Shown here piece by piece: positions 18,787 to 62,039 of a DNA stretch of 64,000 bases. Source of the stretch: Bacillota bacterium. GTDB taxonomy: Bacteria > Bacillota > Clostridia > Christensenellales > UBA1242. The first letter of the stretch is position 1; the number at the start of each line of letters is the position of its first letter. Both the position numbers and the translations under genes were made by a program. The stretch spans positions 1,868 to 65,867 of the forward strand of contig WRCD01000005.1 in the NCBI GenBank assembly GCA_009784185.1, read 5' to 3'. The notes below the pieces were generated by a model that saw only the letters and a program-made list of their open reading frames with translations, had not been told where the DNA came from and searched no databases.

Positions 18787-18871
18787 GTCACTGCGAGACT
18801 GTCCTCGGAGCCAGCAGACGAAGGAGCGTTAGCGACCCACCGTTGTTCCCTGTTACTTGTTCATTGTTCAC
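18787..18871 (+). repeat. Composite repeat: family-C-like end + GGAGCGnnAGCGACC module + heptamer array D1
   Basis: GTCACTGCGAG.., then GGAGCGTTAGCGACC, then GTTGTTC CCTGTTA CTTGTTC ATTGTTC AC. Confidence 0.75.
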
Positions 18872-18906
18872 TTAAAAAGCAGTGATTGTATCACTGCTTT
18901 TTACAA

Positions 18907-24282: not shown

Positions 24283-24447
24283 TATATTCCCATTTAAAGA
24301 GGGATGTCACCTGGTGACGGGATACAGTGTGCTAATAGTTTCCTCTATTTCACAAGCAATATTACCACAAAACCACGCAAAAGTCAAACTTATACGGAAA
24401 AAACCCGCAAACAAATATCAGATATCAAATGTCAGATATCAGTTGAA

Positions 24448-24575
24448 GGTCGCTGACGCTCCAAAAAGATGTGGCAGCGAAGTGACGGGGGATGTGATTT
24501 GCGAAGGCACCTAACAGACCACGTCAGCTTTGCTAGCCACATCTTTAGTTATTAAGTATTAAGTGCTTTTGGTTT
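24448..24575 (+). repeat. Family-B long hairpin (copy B1) with flanking modules; left arm of ~125-bp inverted repeat
   Basis: GGTCGCTGACGCTCC, then stem AAAGATGTGGCAGCGAAGTGACG, loop GGGGATGTGATTTGCGAAGGCACCTAACAGACC, stem CGTCAGCTTTGCTAGCCACATCTTT, then (ATTAAGT)n. Confidence 0.85.
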
Positions 24576-25205
24576 TACAATTACCTTAATCAGCGCAAAC
24601 AGCAGTGCCGCAAAAACCCCTACAAAAAATGCGCCCAGCATATATGTAACAAAGTCCTGAAACACCGTACATACCGCTACCATAAATATGCCCGTTATCA
24701 GGTTGCCCGCAAGCAGTGCTAATAAAGACTTCCAGAATCCTAAGCCCAGTATCAGCGCAACCAGGCAGCCGGCGTATATCCCGCTAAACGGCAGCGGCAG
24801 CGCAACAAACAGCACCACACCTATTATCTTATAAAAATCTATCATTGCCGGATTATGCTTTTTGCCGGCACGTTCTGCTGCCTTGCCCTCAATCTTGGTT
24901 TTGCTCTTACGCAACTTCTTGTCAAACTCATCAACTGCTTTTCTAAACAGCCTGGTATTGCGCAGCCGGTTCATAATCGGCAATCCTATTAATAGTATCA
25001 CCGGCATAATTACGCATGAACCAAGATACCCCCAAAAAAACGCCGCAAACGGGCTCATGGCATTAGCTCCCCAAATTTCGGCCGACATCCCAAACGGGAT
25101 AGCGGTATGAAACTCCAGCATAGGAAGCGCAGATACAATCATAACCGCAAGCCAGTTAGCCTGCCCGAATACCGAAACCAGAAACTCCGTAACCCACTCA
25201 AACAT
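24552..25205 (-). CDS. Small multidrug export protein family (Sm_multidrug_ex-like) membrane protein
   Basis: LPMLEFHTAIPFGM .. a K-rich loop .. ALPLPFSGIYAGCLVALILG fits the COG2426-type two-half topology. The track start at 25226 is a GTG inside the flanking repeat, so I prefer the ATG at 25205. Confidence 0.65.
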   Translation of the reverse strand: MFEWVTEFLVSVFGQANWLAVMIVSALPMLEFHTAIPFGMSAEIWGANAMSPFAAFFWGYLGSCVIMPVILLIGLPIMNRLRNTRLFRKAVDEFDKKLRKSKTKIEGKAAERAGKKHNPAMIDFYKIIGVVLFVALPLPFSGIYAGCLVALILGLGFWKSLLALLAGNLITGIFMVAVCTVFQDFVTYMLGAFFVGVFAALLFALIKVIVKPKALNT

Positions 25206-25227
25206 GCTGTATTCTATGCGGAGCACT

Positions 25228-25375
25228 TAATACTTAATACTTAATAACTAAAGATGCGGCTAGCAAAGCTGACGCGGTCTGTTAGGTGCCTTCGCAAATC
25301 ACATTCCCCGTCACTTCGCTGCCACATCTTTTTGGAGCGCCAGCGACCTATACTTGTTCCCTGTTCCCTGTTCAC
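25228..25375 (-). repeat. Family-B long hairpin (copy B2, inverted) + GGAGCGCCAGCGACC + heptamer array D2
   Basis: The reverse complement matches 24448-24575 with a few substitutions and one extra ATTAAGT unit. It ends in CTTGTTC CCTGTTC CCTGTTC AC. Confidence 0.85.
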
Positions 25376-25404
25376 TAAAAAATCACCCCGCAGGGTGATT
25401 TTTT
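25376..25404 (-). terminator. Terminator after ndk
   Basis: ATCACCC-cgca-GGGTGAT flanked by A and T runs, so it is bidirectional in form. Confidence 0.75.
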
Positions 25405-25812: not shown

Positions 25813-25825
25813 AATTTTTCTCCTT

Positions 25826-25869
25826 AATATTCCCCTCTGCAAGAGGGGCGCCCGAAGGGCGGGGTGTGG
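25826..25869 (+). repeat. Family-A repeat
   Basis: AATATTCCCCTCTGCAAGAGGGGCGCCCGAAGGGCGGGGTGTGG. Confidence 0.85.
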
Positions 25870-25921
25870 TTAATGGGTTTATTGTAACAGATTTCTAGCC
25901 TGTTGGCAAGCAAAAGAATGT

Positions 25922-45527: not shown

Positions 45528-45563
45528 TTACCTGTTCTCTGTTCCCTGTTCCCTGTTCCTTGT
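45528..45563 (+). repeat. Heptamer array D3 (overlaps the last codons of the TVP38-family gene)
   Basis: TTA CCTGTTC TCTGTTC CCTGTTC CCTGTTC CTTGT. Read on the minus strand it gives ..TRNREQGTENR*. Confidence 0.8.
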
Positions 45564-46336: not shown

Positions 46337-46468
46337 AATTCCCCTCTATAAGAGGGGTGGATACGACCGAGTAAAACGAGAGAGTAGACGGGGTGTGGCA
46401 GTAAAGCAATCAGTTTGAGCAACCACACCCCGTCGGCTGCGCCGCCACCCCTCTTATAGAGGGGAATT
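46337..46468. repeat. Family-A repeat, inverted pair with ~50-nt centre
   Basis: AATTCCCCTCTATAAGAGGGGTGGATACGACCGAG..GACGGGGTGTGGCAG...CCACACCCCGTCGGCTGCGCCGCCACCCCTCTTATAGAGGGGAATT. Confidence 0.85.
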
Positions 46469-46484
46469 TTCGTTTCATATCTGC

Positions 46485-47039: not shown

Positions 47040-47100
47040 GTGTTGTGTTCTCCTAGGCCTTATATTATCAAAGTACCACAAAAAACACAAGCAGATTAAA

Positions 47101-47139
47101 CCACCCCGCCCTTTGGGCACCCCTCCAAGGAGGGGAATT
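47101..47139 (-). repeat. Family-A repeat (reverse orientation)
   Basis: CCACCCCGCCCTTTGGGCACCCCTCCAAGGAGGGGAATT. Confidence 0.85.
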
Positions 47140-47194
47140 TTTGTACTGAAAAGCCACCAGCAACGCTGATGGCTTTTCACCGTACTGCCCAGAA

Positions 47195-49539: not shown

Positions 49540-49555
49540 AAGTTACCTCCATATA

Positions 49556-49673
49556 AATTCCCCTCTACAAGAGGGGTGCCACGGAGTGGCGGGGTGTGGT
49601 TGGTTGAAAAGTCTTTGCGCAGCCACACCCCGTCAAACCTGACGGTTTGCCACCCCTCTTATAGAGGGGAATT
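49556..49673. repeat. Family-A repeat, inverted pair
   Basis: AATTCCCCTCTACAAGAGGGGTGCCACGGAGTGGCGGGGTGTGG ... CCACACCCCGTCAAACCTGACGGTTTGCCACCCCTCTTATAGAGGGGAATT. Confidence 0.85.
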
Positions 49674-49680
49674 ATTTACA

Positions 49681-52593: not shown

Positions 52594-52622
52594 CCATTAG
52601 TGTATTTGAGGCTCCACAATAA

Positions 52623-52664
52623 AATTCCCCTCTATAAGAGGGGTGCCCGAAGGGCGGGGTGTGG
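52623..52664 (+). repeat. Family-A repeat
   Basis: AATTCCCCTCTATAAGAGGGGTGCCCGAAGGGCGGGGTGTGG. Confidence 0.85.
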
Positions 52665-52671
52665 ATAAAAG

Positions 52672-53160
52672 TCACTGTTCTTTGTTACCTGTTCCTTGTT
52701 CACTGAATATCATATTCTCAAACTCATTAAGGAAACTTACAAAGTTGTTTATATCCTTAAACTTCCTGTATACACTGGCAAACCGCACGTAAGCAACTTC
52801 ATCCAGTTTTTTCAGCGCATCCATAACCGCCTCGCCAATTATGCTGGACTTTACCTCCTGCTCCAAGCCGTTGTGTATCTGCTTTTCAATGTCGTTTACA
52901 ATTTTATCAATCTGCCCCATTGTAATCGGACGCTTTTCGCAAGCCTTAATAATACCATGCTTAATCTTGTCACGCTCAAACGGCTGACGCGAACCATCGG
53001 ATTTAATAACCAAAATCGGTACCGTCTCCACAGTCTCATATGTGGTAAACCGCTTCCCGCAAGTTAAGCACTCGCGCCTCCGCCTTATTGAGTTCTGTTC
53101 ATCGGTTGCGCGTGAATCAATAACCTTACTGTCATCATGCCCGCAATAAATACATTTCAT
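52672..53160 (-). CDS. nrdR: Transcriptional repressor NrdR (zinc ribbon + ATP-cone)
   Basis: [42 protein letters not shown]. The last ~10 aa (EQGTGNKEQ) are read from heptamer array D4. Confidence 0.9.
52673..52703 (+). repeat. Heptamer array D4
   Basis: CACTGTTC TTTGTTA CCTGTTC CTTGTTC AC. Confidence 0.8.
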
Positions 53161-53225: not shown

Positions 53226-53344
53226 AATTCCCCTTACTTTACTTTCGCCACACCCCGCCACTAAAAGGGGCAGTCCGGAGTGTCGGGGGATGTGATTTGC
53301 GAAGGCACCTAACAGACCCTGACAGCTCCGGACTGCCCCTTTTG
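53226..53344 (+). repeat. Degenerate family-A unit followed by family-B long hairpin (copy B3)
   Basis: AATTCCCCTTACTTT..CACCCCGCC, then stem AAAAGGGGCAGTCCGGAGTGTCG, loop GGGGATGTGATTTGCGAAGGCACCTAACAGACC, stem CTGACAGCTCCGGACTGCCCCTTTT. Confidence 0.85.
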
Positions 53345-55151: not shown

Positions 55152-55913
55152 ATGGATTATTCGTTAGACCAAAACAAAAAAGGCAGCTGGTTCACCTCAG
55201 CCGACAGCCTTAAAATAGTTGCAATTACCGCAATGCTTATAGACCACATTGCGTGGTCGTTTGTTACGCTTGAATCCGCAGGCGGATTTATTATGCACTT
55301 TATCGGCCGCATGACAATTCCGATAATGTGCTTCTTTATAGCCCAAGGATATTTGCGCACAAGCAACCTAAAAAAATACGCGCTCCGGTTGTTGATATTT
55401 GCTCTAATTGCCCACATACCGTTTGTTATGTGGCAGACCGGCGGATTTCCGTTAACCATTGTCGGATTCCTGCAAAGCTTTTTTAATACAAGTGTAATGT
55501 GGCCGCTGTTTCTGGGGTTAATTGCCCTGCATATTATAAACAAGCGCCATTGGAACTATTTTCTCCGCCTGTTTTTCATAGTTGTTTTTCTTGTACTTTC
55601 GTTTGCGGGAGACTGGACCATATGGGCGGTGCTGTGGATTATAGTTTTTGGAACCCTGCACAAACACAAGGTATGGCAGTTTGTATGCTTTGCCGGAATT
55701 GCGCTTGTTTATATTTTGTTGCATATAGTCTCCCCCGCTGTTGCGGGCGAAACGTGGGCATGGCATTTGTATACTCTGGGGCTGTTTGCGCCAATACTTC
55801 TGCTATGGTTCTACAACGGCAGCCGCAAACCGAGCAAACATCTGAAGTACGCGTTCTACATCTTCTACCCCGCCCACCTGCTGATAATAGCGGTGATAGC
55901 GTTATTAGTTTAG
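55152..55913 (+). CDS. traX: TraX-family membrane protein
   Basis: SADSLKIVAITAMLIDHIAWSF plus about seven TM helices fits the TraX signature. It lies on the opposite strand between sigE and sigG. Confidence 0.75.
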   Translation: MDYSLDQNKKGSWFTSADSLKIVAITAMLIDHIAWSFVTLESAGGFIMHFIGRMTIPIMCFFIAQGYLRTSNLKKYALRLLIFALIAHIPFVMWQTGGFPLTIVGFLQSFFNTSVMWPLFLGLIALHIINKRHWNYFLRLFFIVVFLVLSFAGDWTIWAVLWIIVFGTLHKHKVWQFVCFAGIALVYILLHIVSPAVAGETWAWHLYTLGLFAPILLLWFYNGSRKPSKHLKYAFYIFYPAHLLIIAVIALLV

Positions 55914-55916
55914 CCA

Positions 55917-56043
55917 AAGGGGTATGCGGAGTTACGGGGGATGTGTTTTGCGAAGGCACGTAACAGACCCTGTAAGCTCCGCGTACCCCTTTAGGAGCAA
56001 AGCGACCCTTAGTTGTTACTTGTTACCTGTTCCTTGTTCCCTG
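55917..56043 (+). repeat. Family-B long hairpin (copy B4) + GGAGCAAAGCGACC + heptamer array D5
   Basis: Stem AAAGGGGTATGCGGAGTTACG, loop GGGGATGTGTTTTGCGAAGGCACGTAACAGACC, stem CTGTAAGCTCCGCGTACCCCTTT, then GTTGTTA CTTGTTA CCTGTTC CTTGTTC CCTG. Confidence 0.85.
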
Positions 56044-56046
56044 ATT

Positions 56047-56779: not shown

Positions 56780-56909
56780 CAGGTAACAAGTAACAGGTAA
56801 CAGGGAACAACTATTGGTCGCTACGCTCCGATATTAATTGGAACGAAGTGACCCACCGTTGTTACCTGTTCCCTGTTACCTGCTCCCTGTTCCCTGCTCC
56901 CTGTTCCCC
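56780..56909. repeat. Inverted heptamer arrays D6/D7 with central GGTCGCTACGCTCC module
   Basis: CAGGTAACAAGTAACAGGTAACAGGGAACAAC .. GGTCGCTACGCTCC .. GTGACCCACC GTTGTTA CCTGTTC CCTGTTA CCTGCTC CCTGTTC CCTGCTC CCTGTTC CCC. Confidence 0.85.
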
Positions 56910-57741: not shown

Positions 57742-57838
57742 GCTTAAATTATAAATTATTTAACACAGTTTTGATTGTGCAAAAAAACCACTATCCCCAC
57801 TATTTTTGTATAATCGGAGCGCAAGCGACCCCACAAAA

Positions 57839-57939: not shown

Positions 57940-60717
57940 TTAAACCAAATCGGTGGCAAAAACCTTCAGTTCCGGGTAATAACTTTCGGTTGCAGTATTG
58001 AGGCGTTTAATCCATGCGCTGCTCGGTCCACTGCCCAAGCCGGTCATGTACATATCCAGCGTGCCGGTTATCAGCATCTGACTCGTTGTAAGTGCACCGG
58101 TGGTTCCGGTCACATTGCCTATTTGCGGCCCGCTGAAAACCGTGGAATTGTAATAAGTGTTTGAAATAGTAATACTGCCGTCTCTTCTGCCAACAATTCC
58201 GCCGCGATTGCTGCCGGTAGCCGTTAAGACGCCCCTGTTATAACAACTTGTTATTACGGCATTTGTAGCCGCAACACCCGCAATACCGCCAACCTGACTA
58301 ACGCCCGTTACGGCACCTGCATTATAACTGTCTATTATTGTGCCCGAAACATTGTATCCTACAATACCACCTGTGTGACCGGGTGCACCTGCACCTGTGG
58401 TTTGAATATGCCCCGTGTTGTAACAGTTTGTAATTGTCATAACACCGTCTATGCCGCCCACAATTCCGCCGCTGCCGCCGCCGTTTAGGCCGCCTTGAGA
58501 TACATTGCCTGTGTTATAACTGTTCATTATTTTTGCATTTGCAGAAAACGGAGCAGCACGAAGCCCGGCAATACCTCCGGCATTGTCTGCGGTAGCTGTA
58601 ACTATGCCTGTATTATAACTGCTTGAAATTACAGCCGAGCCAAGCAAATGCCCTACTATACCACCCGCACCGTTGATTGATACAATTGTGGCAGAGTTGG
58701 ATGTGTTGGTTATAGTGCTTGTGCCCAGAGCACCACCTGCTATTCCGCCAGCCCCGTACATTGGGTTTCTGATATAACCGTCTTTTACATTAACGTTTGA
58801 AACTGCGGCATTTTCTATTGCTCCAAACAACCCGGCCCCGCTGGATTCGTTAACATAAAGGCCAAACACCGAATTGTTCCTGCCGTCAAACCTTGCCTTA
58901 AACGTCGTGGTTGAGTTTCCTATCGGCGCCCATTGCTCAAGCCCGGTGGTTGTTGGCCCCCAGCTCTGCCAGCCGGAAGTATTGTTTAGGGTAATACTTG
59001 CAGTTAGTGCGTAATACTTGGTGCTGGAGTTGAAATTACCGCCGTTTACAGTGTCCGGAAGATTATTGTTAATTACAAAACTAAACCACTCTAACTGAGC
59101 CTTATTAGATATTAAGTACGGACTTTGTTGCGTACCTGTACCACCCGCAAAAACACCTGCTATTGTTATTGAAAAGGCTCTTTCTGCAAATCTGGTAGTT
59201 GTAGCGTTAGTTACTCTTATTGTAAAGTTAAAAGTGCCGGCTGTATTAGGTGTTCCGCTAATTACTCCCGTTGCCGCAGCAATTGATAAGCCGCCCGGCA
59301 AACTGCCGCTGACCACTGTTCGGTTTAAGGTGCCGGCTTCTGCGCAAGTGGCAGCAATTGTTTGGTTATAGGTCGCATTAACCGTGCCGCCCGGCAAAGG
59401 TGAGGTGGTTGTAATAACTACAGGTGCAGCCTGGTAAACAAATCTTGGATAAACCGTTGTAATCCAACTCTCATAAGTTACTCCCGATGGAGGACTTACA
59501 GTTGGGTTGTTTTTCCACGCATTAAGGGCTGTAAGAAGGGTTTGACCGTTGTATCCGTTATTATTCTGAGTTATCGTTCCTGATGTGTTAAATTGGTCAA
59601 TAGTACCGCTTCCGCCACCGGAGAGATTATGAACCGAATCCGTAAGAAAATAACATGCCGTAACGTTTGCTGCGGTTGCATTTCCCGCAATGCCGCGGGT
59701 TGAACCAAAATAACCGGTCATGGTTCCGGTATTGTAACTGTTTCTTATCGAACCGGATGTTCTGCCCGCAATGCCGCCGGTAGTAGAAGAAGGGTTACTT
59801 GAGCTTCCTGAGCCTTGCACTGCACCTGAGTTGTAGCAGTTTAGTATACGGCAGTTAGTACTGCTTATGGTTCCCGCAATGCCGCCGGTATTATGTGTTT
59901 GAATACTATTGTCATTGTAGGCCACATTACCGGCATTATAACAGTTTATTATGGTAACAACCTGGTTGCTGGAGGCTGCCACCGAACCTACAATGCCGCC
60001 TATCTGACTAACCGCGCCTCCTTCTATGCGTCGCCCAGAAACCAATATGTTATAGCAGCTATCAATTACAGTGTTGGTTGCATTTACTATAGTGCCTACT
60101 ATACCGCCAACATCGCCTGTACTAAGCAATGTTAGGCCATTATGACTGTTTTTTATTGTACAAGCACCTGTTGCATAACCTACTATGCCTCCCGTTGCGT
60201 TGCCTGCTCTAATATAACCCCTTGTAACTCCAACGTTGGAAATTGTAGCGCCGTTTATATAGCCGAATAAGCCTTGAAAGGTAGCTGTTGTACTGATATA
60301 AACTCCGTAAACACTGTAATGTTTGCCGTCAAAATTTGCTCTAAAGTTGTTGGTGTTGTTCCCAATCGGCGTCCATGAATTTAGTCCGGTTGTTGACGGA
60401 CCCCAGCTTGTCCAGTTGGCGGTATTGTTTAGTGTAATATTTTGAGTGAGTTCATAGTAATGACTCGAGGTATTACCTATGTTGGCATTTATTTCTTGTC
60501 TCATACGCGCTAACTGTTCGGCTGTTGTAATCTTCCACGGGTTGGCTTGTGTGCCTGCACCACTGGCAAATGAGCCCGCAATGGTGCCGTTCCATACTGG
60601 GGAATCGTTAGCCAGTGTTGTGCTAACAAAAAACACCATAAGCGGTGTCATAACCAATGCGAACAAAAAAGCAAGCAATCCGGCAATACTTATCGGCCTG
60701 TTTACATATTGCGGCAT
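57940..60717 (-). CDS. Large GLUG-repeat surface protein with a central Ig-like (He_PIG-type) domain; internally duplicated
   Basis: N-terminal anchor helix. Dozens of GGI(V/A)G-type repeats spaced about 22 aa apart. The central segment LPGGTVNATYNQTIAA..GSLPGGLSIAAATGVISGTPNTAGTFNFTIRVTN is Ig-like. Two halves begin with GAGTQANPWKITTAEQL and GGTGTQQSPYLISNKAQL. Confidence 0.8.
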   Translation of the reverse strand: MPQYVNRPISIAGLLAFLFALVMTPLMVFFVSTTLANDSPVWNGTIAGSFASGAGTQANPWKITTAEQLARMRQEINANIGNTSSHYYELTQNITLNNTANWTSWGPSTTGLNSWTPIGNNTNNFRANFDGKHYSVYGVYISTTATFQGLFGYINGATISNVGVTRGYIRAGNATGGIVGYATGACTIKNSHNGLTLLSTGDVGGIVGTIVNATNTVIDSCYNILVSGRRIEGGAVSQIGGIVGSVAASSNQVVTIINCYNAGNVAYNDNSIQTHNTGGIAGTISSTNCRILNCYNSGAVQGSGSSSNPSSTTGGIAGRTSGSIRNSYNTGTMTGYFGSTRGIAGNATAANVTACYFLTDSVHNLSGGGSGTIDQFNTSGTITQNNNGYNGQTLLTALNAWKNNPTVSPPSGVTYESWITTVYPRFVYQAAPVVITTTSPLPGGTVNATYNQTIAATCAEAGTLNRTVVSGSLPGGLSIAAATGVISGTPNTAGTFNFTIRVTNATTTRFAERAFSITIAGVFAGGTGTQQSPYLISNKAQLEWFSFVINNNLPDTVNGGNFNSSTKYYALTASITLNNTSGWQSWGPTTTGLEQWAPIGNSTTTFKARFDGRNNSVFGLYVNESSGAGLFGAIENAAVSNVNVKDGYIRNPMYGAGGIAGGALGTSTITNTSNSATIVSINGAGGIVGHLLGSAVISSSYNTGIVTATADNAGGIAGLRAAPFSANAKIMNSYNTGNVSQGGLNGGGSGGIVGGIDGVMTITNCYNTGHIQTTGAGAPGHTGGIVGYNVSGTIIDSYNAGAVTGVSQVGGIAGVAATNAVITSCYNRGVLTATGSNRGGIVGRRDGSITISNTYYNSTVFSGPQIGNVTGTTGALTTSQMLITGTLDMYMTGLGSGPSSAWIKRLNTATESYYPELKVFATDLV

Positions 60718-60798: not shown

Positions 60799-62039
60799 TT
60801 ATCTTCCCTTTTTCTCTTTCTTCAGTTTTCTGAGAAACGGCGGGATGTCCGCATCATCCACTTTATATCTTGATGAGCCCGCATCCTTGCCGCCGGTCTG
60901 CCGGTCTGCAGCTTCTTCGGCCATTTCAACTTCACGCTCATCATAACTGGATTGATTTGTTTTGCCGCTGCCGATTCTGCCGGCTAAAAATTCGGCGTAC
61001 TTCTTCTGCGAATACTCTTTAGCACTCTCCTCAACCGGGTTAGCTTTTTCATCCTTCTTTTCTAATAGTCCCGGTCCGGCAAAGCCGGTTGCAATAACGG
61101 TAATCTCAACCGTATCTTCAAGAGTGTCGTCTACACTTGCCCCAAAAATAATGTTACAGCTTGGGTCAACAAGGTCACGCATAAGGTCGGCTGCCTCATA
61201 TACCTGGTCAAGCGGAAGGTCCATGCCGCCCTTAACGTTAAATATAATGCCGGTTGCGCCTTCAATACTCGTCTCAAGCAGCGGACTGTTAACCGCCTGG
61301 CTCAGCGCCTCAAAAATCTTTCTGTCGCCTTTAGCCCGGCCAATACCCATATGCGCATGACCGCGGTTTTTCATAATGGTGCGCACGTCGGCAAGTCCAG
61401 ATTGATAAGTGAATTCTGGATAATCAGGTTGCTTATGCCTTGCACGCCTTGCCTCAGCACATCGTCGGCGTATCTAAACGTATCTACAATGCTTGTACCT
61501 TTCGGCACCAGCTTAAACAACTTCTCGTTTGGAATTATTACAAGGCTGTCTACCACCTTGCGCAATGCATCAATGCCGTTTTCGGCATTTTCCATTCTCC
61601 TGCGCCCTTCAAAATTAAACGGCTTGGTTACAACCGCAATTGTAAGAATCTCTTTTTCACGGCTTAAGTTTGCTATCAGCGGAGCCGCACCCGTGCCTGT
61701 TCCGCCGCCCATGCCTGCGGTAATAAACACCAAATCGGCATCGTTAAGCGCCTGGTCAAGCTCTGCCTGATTTTCCTCGGCTGCTTTTAATCCAACAATC
61801 GGGTCGGCGCCCGCACCCCAGCCGCGTGTAAGTTTTATGCCAATCTGAATACGATAATCGGCCTTGCTGACCTGCAATGCCTGTTTGTCGGTATTAACCG
61901 CAATAAACTCCACGCCTGAAACTCCTGCATTAACCATCCGGTCAATTGCATTACCTCCGCCTCCGCCTACGCCAATAACCTTAATCTTAATTACCGGAGT
62001 AACCGAGTTTCCTCCTGAATACGAGCTGTAACCGTTCAT
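60799..62039 (-). pseudogene. ftsZ: Cell division protein FtsZ, split by a 1-nt frameshift (or sequencing error)
   Basis: ORF 61371-62039 carries [21 protein letters not shown] and [10 protein letters not shown] and ends in [15 protein letters not shown] 60799-61386 continues as (AD)[27 protein letters not shown]. Changing GACTTGCC to GACTTTGCC near 61392 restores LINLDFADVRTIM. Confidence 0.85.

Follow-up and report, generated by a model that had tools for sequence, protein, structure and literature searches.

The window, i.e., the whole 64-kb stretch of DNA that was analyzed, contains seven tandem arrays of the heptamer YYTGTTM (unit CCTGTTC on one strand, GAACAGG on the other), and the neighboring genes include those identified by Pfam as NDK, VTT/TVP38, NrdR, SigE, and SpoIIGA. 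The arrays had been described in a first-pass annotation, and direct reading together with a regular-expression census confirmed their positions and their size of three to seven head-to-tail units. Three consecutive YYTGTTM units with at most two mismatches were matched 19 times (overlapping matches), every time within one of these seven loci, against 0.02 matches expected from dinucleotide-preserving shuffles. The arrays are also reported by TRF, and period 7 is the commonest period in the TRF list. They are located as follows.

18842-18871 (18842-18869), plus strand: heptamer array of four units, GTTGTTC CCTGTTA CTTGTTC ATTGTTC; 36 nt from the stop codon of a gene for a 198-aa hypothetical protein, past that gene's terminator
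25353-25375 (25353-25373), plus strand: heptamer array of three units; 30 nt from the ndk stop codon, past the ndk terminator
45528-45563 (45531-45558), plus strand: heptamer array of four units and a degenerate unit, with no module adjacent
52673-52703 (52674-52701), plus strand: heptamer array of four units, encoding the last codons of nrdR
56013-56043 (56012-56039), plus strand: heptamer array of four units and a partial unit, beginning 4 nt past the sigE stop codon
56858-56909 (56858-56906), plus strand: heptamer array of seven units, 8 nt past the spoIIGA stop codon
56780-56811 (56784-56811), minus strand: inverted heptamer array of four units, 14 nt upstream of the sigE start codon

All seven arrays lie within about 50 bp of an ORF, at 36, 30, 0, 0, 4, 8, and 14 nt in the order given above. 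As annotated, the six plus-strand arrays are near or across the stop codons of minus-strand genes, two of them overlapping the gene. The tails that these two arrays were said to encode are correct: EQGTGNKEQ in NrdR and NREQGTENR in the VTT/TVP38 protein, where the array at 45528 supplies the stop codon as well as the last codons. An independent ENA contig (112.9 kb, 99.98% identical) has the same sequence at the arrays at 52674, 56012, 56784, and 56858, and a Logan assembly contig is identical over those at 56012 and 56784; therefore, the arrays are not an assembly artefact. No difference in the number of units was seen across the three assemblies, which possibly come from related samples and may not represent independent strains.

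Five of the seven arrays adjoin a short module of the type GGAGCGnnAGCGACC, the adjacency of which had already been noticed. The module is real, with five matches at two or fewer mismatches compared to 0.61 expected, and exact copies are present at 18823, 25334, and 57816 on the plus strand and at 24448 on the minus strand. The copies and variants are listed here.

18823-18837, plus strand: module GGAGCGTTAGCGACC, 5-6 nt ahead of the array
25334-25348, plus strand: module GGAGCGCCAGCGACC, the outer boundary of a conserved 118-nt core
24448-24462, minus strand: module GGAGCGTCAGCGACC, an inverted copy followed by a different heptamer array, (CTGATAT)4
55994-56007, plus strand: module variant GGAGCAAAGCGACC, one base shorter
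56816-56829, minus strand: module variant GGAGCGTAGCGACC, one base shorter
56840-56853, plus strand: degenerate module GGAACGAAGTGACC, with the junction CACCGTTGTT in common with the copy at 18823
57816-57830, plus strand: module GGAGCGCAAGCGACC, without an array after it

Alignment of the seven arrays resolves a discrete element. It opens with GGAGCGnnAGCGACC; after 5-6 nt comes a first unit (G/C)TTGTTM, more units follow, and the end motif is CTGA (or CTTA, CTAA), beyond which the sequence is A/T-rich. In five arrays, the adjacent 14-15-nt module, the first unit, the order of the unit variants, and the end motif are the same. In addition, positions 52682-52706 and 56020-56044 are 96% identical, and the module and array at 56785-56829 share 85% identity with 18823-18868. 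The common junctions, unit order, and end motifs demonstrate that the arrays are copies of one another. By contrast, each array might have been born in place as an independent microsatellite by polymerase slippage, a process to which 7-nt units are prone, without any dispersal. In many bacteria, no class of long SSRs is more over-represented than heptamers, as far as Mrazek (2007) is quoted in later work (PMC4679880; PMC4692102), and the arrays at 25353 and 45531 do hold runs of identical units. However, the occurrence of one heptamer family seven times in 64 kb and the features common to five of the arrays argue against separate births, as does the heterogeneity of the units, which do not appear freshly amplified. 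We regard independent slippage as the least probable of the explanations considered here.

Within the intergenic space, the arrays form one part of a mosaic of short repeats. The ORF at 24552-25226 is flanked on both sides by a 118-nt core, the two copies being inverted relative to each other and 96.6% identical, and each core combines (ACTTAAT)n with an 84-nt hairpin and the module. Past the module, one copy of the core has (YYTGTTC)3 and the other has (CTGATAT)4; therefore, the conserved core is bounded by the module, and outside it the heptamers can differ. The hairpins and the other heptamer arrays of the mosaic are as follows.

25250-25333, minus strand: long hairpin with conserved apical loop, adjoining the module
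24463-24546, plus strand: long hairpin, the inverted twin of the hairpin at 25250
55916-55992, plus strand: long hairpin whose stem differs but whose loop is the same, adjoining the module and array at the sigE 3' end
53263-53343, plus strand: long hairpin with the same loop, without module or array, with terminator-like A-run and T-run flanks
24415-24442, plus strand: heptamer array (ATATCAG)4, which forms the inverted element's outer end
25225-25246, plus strand: heptamer array (ACTTAAT)3, which forms the element's inner end and has a counterpart at 24550-24564

The four hairpins, with stems of 20-25 bp flanked by an A-run and a T-run, carry a common 35-nt apical loop, GGGGGATGTGATTTGCGAAGGCACCTAACAGACC, on differing stems, so the family looks like a conserved insert in terminator-like hairpins. 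No Rfam match was obtained for the long hairpins or their loop. Because the 150-nt elements end in unrelated heptamers, (ATATCAG)4 and (ACTTAAT)2-3, a 7-base periodicity is general to the mosaic and not limited to TGTT-containing units. The element also differs from a MITE: its two ends are unrelated heptamers (ACTTAAT versus YYTGTTM or CTGATAT), no terminal inverted repeat was found, and comparison with relatives revealed no target-site duplication at the junctions. No transposase was found among the ORFs scanned against Pfam, which are a minority of the ORFs in the window. The ORF at 24552-25226 was considered as a transposase and rejected, as Pfam assigns it to the Sm_multidrug_ex membrane proteins.

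Another dispersed family, AAAATTCCCCTCTATAAGAGGGG(TGCCCGAAGGGCGGGGTGTGG) with a terminator-like hairpin, is present at 25825-25873, 46337-46360, 46427-46470, and 47096-47141, with further copies at 49555-49601, 49649-49675, and 52620-52668. One copy of the AAAATTCCCCTCTATAAGAGGGG family directly adjoins the nrdR array, and another comes after the module at 57816. Between this neighboring family and the nrdR array lies a perfect DnaA-box 9-mer, TGTGGATAA (52660-52668), probably by chance.

The syntenic DNA of five relatives (L123, L126, L128, L167, and L168; about 80 kb), whose NrdR proteins are 77-89% identical to the one encoded here, contained no period-7 array, module, or loop. NrdR in the closest of them (87-89% identity) is 153 aa long, compared to 162 aa here, and ends where the array begins, and the 9-residue array-encoded tail is missing from all five. 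Likewise, the gap between spoIIGA and sigE measures 150 nt here, and in the relatives it is 9-16 nt or the genes overlap. The arrays and modules are therefore lineage-specific insertions. The expansion of the family postdates the divergence of this lineage. An ancestral regulatory role for it in the neighboring genes is excluded.

The syntenic region of all five relatives also lacks two genes that are present here. A traX-like gene (55152-55913, plus strand) separates sigE from sigG and is opposite to them in strand, and a gene for a 925-aa Glug/He_PIG protein (57940-60717, minus strand) is located between ftsZ and spoIIGA. The conserved sporulation/division cluster has thus taken up insertions in this lineage. 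The ftsZ gene itself (60799-62039, minus strand) is interrupted: relative to the ENA contig, in which it is intact and encodes 413 aa, it has a 1-nt deletion and reads as two ORFs (60799-61386 and 61371-62039). The split is probably a sequencing or assembly error, or else ftsZ is a pseudogene. Over the 10 kb rightward through FtsA, no arrays were found in the dcw cluster.

Scans of JGI metagenomes, IMG/VR, plasmids, and phages returned no other copy of the module-array unit or of the hairpin loop. The loop had no match in either the JGI metagenomes or IMG/VR, and a query of AGCGACC with three units produced four unrelated matches in the former. The 36 matches of the module with TGTT in IMG/VR, about the number expected by chance and mostly in coding sequence, were judged coincidental. 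BLAST of the 150-nt element against plasmids and phages and a protein search with spurious ORFs that read across the element were likewise negative, and an Rfam covariance-model search over the array regions had no match at the gathering score or at E<=1. Some phage replication-organizer-like genes in IMG/VR contain GGAGCGnCAGCGACC, followed by a T-rich, 7-nt-periodic stretch that encodes a linker and then by origin-like iterons (L136, L141, L153, L165, L147, L151, L132, L134, L160, and L148); this likeness was also judged coincidental.

Three terminator or terminator-like hairpins lie near the arrays.

18873-18903, minus strand: intrinsic-terminator hairpin between the stop codon of the hypothetical gene and the array at 18842
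25377-25404, minus strand: intrinsic-terminator hairpin of ndk, between its stop codon and the array at 25353
52617-52643, minus strand: terminator-like hairpin CCCCTCTTATAGAGGGG with a U-run, downstream of the nrdR array and belonging to another repeat family

The annotation had concluded that the transcripts of the adjacent genes end in GAACAGG repeats. This holds only in part: four of the six plus-strand arrays are within the expected transcript, whereas at 18842 and 25353 a hairpin and U-run separate the stop codon from the array, so that those mRNAs should mostly end ahead of it. In nrdR, the array is coding and the terminator follows about 30 nt later. After the VTT gene, the array is followed by the ribosome-binding site of the next gene, with no terminator. 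Single arrays were predicted to be unpaired. In the spoIIGA-sigE spacer, the G-rich array, two inverted modules, and the C-rich array are predicted to fold with -71.9 kcal/mol (z = -7.1) into a hairpin spanning a 125-nt palindrome, in which the array at 56780 pairs with that at 56858 and which stops just before the Shine-Dalgarno sequence of sigE. All arrays are 3'-terminal or intergenic, rather than in promoters or 5' coding sequence as phase-variable contingency SSRs are.

The pattern of variation among the units bears on a possible role in RNA. Compared to CCTGTTC, 21 of 24 substitutions fall at positions 1, 2, and 7, and the TGTT core, which occupies four of the seven positions, is nearly invariant with the remaining three (P=8e-6). 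This conservation looks like constraint; it would also fit a binding site, and it counts against reading the arrays as passive repeats. A cis-acting RNA function could be envisaged, in which single-stranded (GAACAGG)n in 3' UTRs or between cistrons binds a CsrA-, Hfq-, Csp-, or S1-type protein or stabilizes mRNA 3' ends. It would agree with the invariant AACA/UGUU core between variable flanking positions, with the predicted lack of pairing in single arrays, and with the location of four of six arrays beside a stop codon within the expected transcript. The CsrA core is ACARGGA, and the arrays resemble CsrA/RsmA site arrays in having repeated GGA-containing RNA motifs. Among the unit forms on the G-rich strand (GGGAACA, GGTAACA, AGGAACA, and AGTAACA), GGGAACA units, and only these, contain ACAGGGA, which resembles that core. 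Binding of CsrA, Csp, or S1 was also proposed, speculatively, for TAACTGA heptamers (PMC4679880).

Several observations speak against such a function. The arrays are missing from the same housekeeping and sporulation genes in five of five relatives, two are located past intrinsic terminators, and one has the reverse sense. GGA is missing from many units (GGTAACA, AGTAACA), and the arrays are not at Shine-Dalgarno sites: CsrA sites overlap the Shine-Dalgarno sequence of 5' leaders, where they often sit in hairpin loops, or else belong to dedicated sRNAs, whereas the arrays are at or past 3' ends, predicted to be unpaired rather than in loops, and in one case antisense. No csrA gene is present within the 64-kb window or on the same contig (L129) to 9.3 kb past the right end of the window. 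Furthermore, array polarity goes with the nearest ORF boundary whichever way the gene points, both here and in other phyla, as described below. We therefore consider an RNA function unlikely.

In all seven arrays of the window, reading the G-rich strand 5'->3' leads away from the nearest ORF, irrespective of the direction of that ORF. The first-pass annotation had related orientation to the sense of the adjacent minus-strand gene, in which six arrays indeed read GAACAGG, and had set the inverted array apart. That array is no exception, as it lies 14 nt from the sigE start with its G-rich strand pointing away from sigE and thus obeys the same ORF-boundary rule. Overall, the interpretation offered in that annotation is partly supported. 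Because GC skew is negative across the whole window, the direction of replication cannot be told apart from that of transcription, and the sigE-proximal array is the only one to separate the hypotheses; the sample is seven arrays within 64 kb, all on one replichore of a single genome.

The same rule was published for GGGAATC repeats in Xanthomonas and GGGGAYT repeats in Anabaena/Nostoc (Rehm et al., 2015; PMC4692102). It was also examined here in a cross-phylum sample of at least 120 loci from a genome scan for (TGTTMYC)3, which among the matches listed included cyanobacteria, Acidobacteriota, Gemmatimonadota, Bacteroidota, rumen Clostridia, and others, and none from the source lineage; ORFs at these foreign loci were called with a crude heuristic. 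Among the matches listed (120 foreign loci), the rule was obeyed by 78 of 103 skewed period-7 arrays (p=1.6e-7), i.e., by 37 of 49 TGTTC-type arrays and 41 of 54 arrays of other heptamers, and by 44 of 58 when one array was counted per locus (p=1e-4). For arrays among these matches at 50 nt or less from an ORF, the count was 47 of 52 (28/30 at 3' ends and 19/22 at 5' ends). Polarity thus tracks the nearest ORF boundary and not the sense of the mRNA, which sits poorly with an RNA function confined to 3' UTRs. The rule was recovered in many phyla, and a tractable host with such repeats could make its cause testable.

In many intergenic regions of the foreign loci (L003-L122), a G-rich heptamer array is separated by a short spacer from a C-rich array whose heptamer differs; among the matches listed, every array of such regions follows the away-from-ORF polarity. 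A metagenomic sequence (L172, ABDH01031461.1), at about 1160-1345, combines G-rich arrays with the inverted repeat GGTCGCT…AGCGACC, after which comes (CCTGTTC)3. This layout is as in cyanobacterial loci and recalls the spoIIGA-sigE palindrome, in a single case that was picked by the search pattern. Insertion beside T-runs, true of four of the seven arrays in the window, is not general in the foreign loci and was dropped as a rule.

Polarity is also relevant to action at the DNA level, either through a G-quadruplex or i-motif or as a replication-oriented motif array of the Chi/KOPS type on the leading strand. In six of seven arrays, the G-rich strand is on the leading strand as marked by GC skew; however, the remaining array is oppositely oriented within the same replichore. 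Chi and KOPS are single oligomers that occur inside genes too, unlike intergenic arrays. A canonical G4 motif is present only in the array at 56858 (56885-56909, minus strand), so that just one of the seven has four G3 tracts, whereas the G4 subtype of Rehm et al. has at least four per array. The related heptamers GGGAATC and GGGGAYT form G4 in vitro, but the Xanthomonas heptamers have no leading/lagging preference (PMC4692102). Taken together, these points render a DNA-level role very improbable. The LexA/Cheo box, the Spo0A box, the SpoIIID site, the integron core site GTTRRRY, Chi, and KOPS were considered as well and rejected, as their consensus sequences differ from the unit.

We also considered that arrays with an invariant AACA/TGTT core might be the footprint or recognition platform of an activity that marks the boundaries of gene units, for which a single-strand nucleic-acid-binding protein or an enzyme adding repeats to 3' ends could be candidates. 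The G-rich strand of a telomere leaves the chromosome as the G-rich strand of an array leaves the ORF. If true, the polarity common to Clostridia, cyanobacteria, Acidobacteriota, Bacteroidota, and Xanthomonas would reflect one mechanism rather than parallel selection. We rate such a boundary-marking activity as highly unlikely.

Instead, we favor, at a probability of roughly 55%, the explanation that the arrays are dispersed repeats, selfish or neutral, which are copied and kept where tolerated and whose effects are by-products. The repeat is about 45-65 nt long, with GGAGCGnnAGCGACC, 5-6 nt, and three to seven YYTGTTM units ending in CTGA or a close variant. It belongs to a mosaic, along with the long terminator-like hairpin with its conserved loop and the CCCCTCTATAAGAGGGG family, that colonized the intergenic space of a spore-forming Clostridia lineage after the split from its nearest sampled relatives. 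New copies may arise from existing ones by transposition or recombination, through an enzyme acting in trans, with slippage adding or removing units. Given the negative results for a transposase, target-site duplications, and terminal inverted repeats, we infer mobility from the copy pattern.

Survival of the copies may be limited to sites directly beyond functional gene units or within the last few codons, and to the tolerated polarity, with the purine-rich strand leaving the adjacent ORF and the pyrimidine-rich strand entering it. Stop trinucleotides in the seven arrays number 14 on the G-rich strands and none on the C-rich strands; therefore, an insertion in the last codons self-terminates in the orientation seen here but not in the opposite one. 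Whichever of its three frames is read, the G-rich strand yields a short tail, and the nrdR array, when inverted in silico, adds a 25-residue hydrophobic tail. This putative selective filter covers arrays that overlap stop codons, not those past terminators or the polarity on the 5' side, and the perfect GGGAACA arrays of other phyla, having no stop codons, are outside it. A dedicated function is probably absent. The short hydrophilic C-terminal tails of NrdR and the VTT protein and the palindrome between spoIIGA and sigE would be by-products of insertion.

The boundaries and effects of insertion are visible here because the arrays are short, module-linked, copied, and missing in close relatives: NrdR gains nine residues, and a palindrome comes to sit between spoIIGA and the ribosome-binding site of sigE. 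For annotation, this means that the unusual C-terminal tails and long intergenic hairpins described here result from repeat insertions and are not conserved features.

The arrays belong to a known class of oriented heptameric intergenic repeats, in a module-linked and degenerate form. The repeats of Rehm et al. (2015) are tandem 7-nt units, typically in about four copies, dispersed and almost all intergenic, with some overlapping stop codons; at 0-50 bp from the nearest ORF, the G-rich sequence occupies the coding strand if the repeat is downstream of the ORF and the non-coding strand if it is upstream, and no leading/lagging bias was seen (PMC4692102). The Xanthomonas and Nostoc SSRs are like the arrays here in their identical polarity and dispersed loci, and some also form inverted pairs (PMC4692102). 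However, the Xanthomonas repeats are largely conserved at the same loci between species (PMC4692102), whereas the arrays here are missing in all sampled relatives. They differ further in their degenerate units (GGGAACA, GGTAACA, or AGGAACA), mostly without G3 tracts, in the 14-15-nt module joined to five of the seven, and in their low-GC, spore-forming Clostridia host.

In cyanobacteria, the STRR sequences of Mazel et al. (1990) are reportedly families of tandem heptanucleotides scattered through intergenic regions. Among the matches listed, (CCTGTTC)n is present in many phyla and abundant in genomes of Nostocales and Oscillatoriales, and the cyanobacterial arrays, unlike those here, are mostly perfect and can be long (up to 59 perfect units in Trichormus, L018), with several heptamer families side by side at a locus. 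The GGAGCG…AGCGACC module was found at none of the 120 loci among these matches.

The modular organization of the mosaic has parallels in BOX, REP/BIME, and the small dispersed repeats of cyanobacteria, which combine short modules in variable ways, with a tandem middle or end module, and are intergenic, non-coding, and lineage-specific with strong hairpins. The cyanobacterial repeats of this kind are said to have been described by Elhai in 2008. Pneumococcal BOX and enterobacterial REP/BIME have no sequence similarity to the arrays, in which the repeated sub-unit is 7 nt, and REP/BIME differ further in having a RAYT/transposase partner, none of which was found here among the ORFs scanned against Pfam.

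The TAACTGA repeats of marine Beggiatoaceae are likewise oriented sets of two to six heptamers beside ORF boundaries with a patchy phylogenetic distribution (MacGregor, 2015; PMC4679880). Unlike the arrays here, they are located directly upstream of start codons in the sense orientation, overlapping the ribosome-binding site, and their unit has no G/C skew and no attached module or hairpin mosaic (PMC4679880). With the arrays described here, the class of oriented heptameric repeats known from cyanobacteria, Xanthomonas, and Beggiatoaceae extends to a low-GC, spore-forming lineage of Clostridia.
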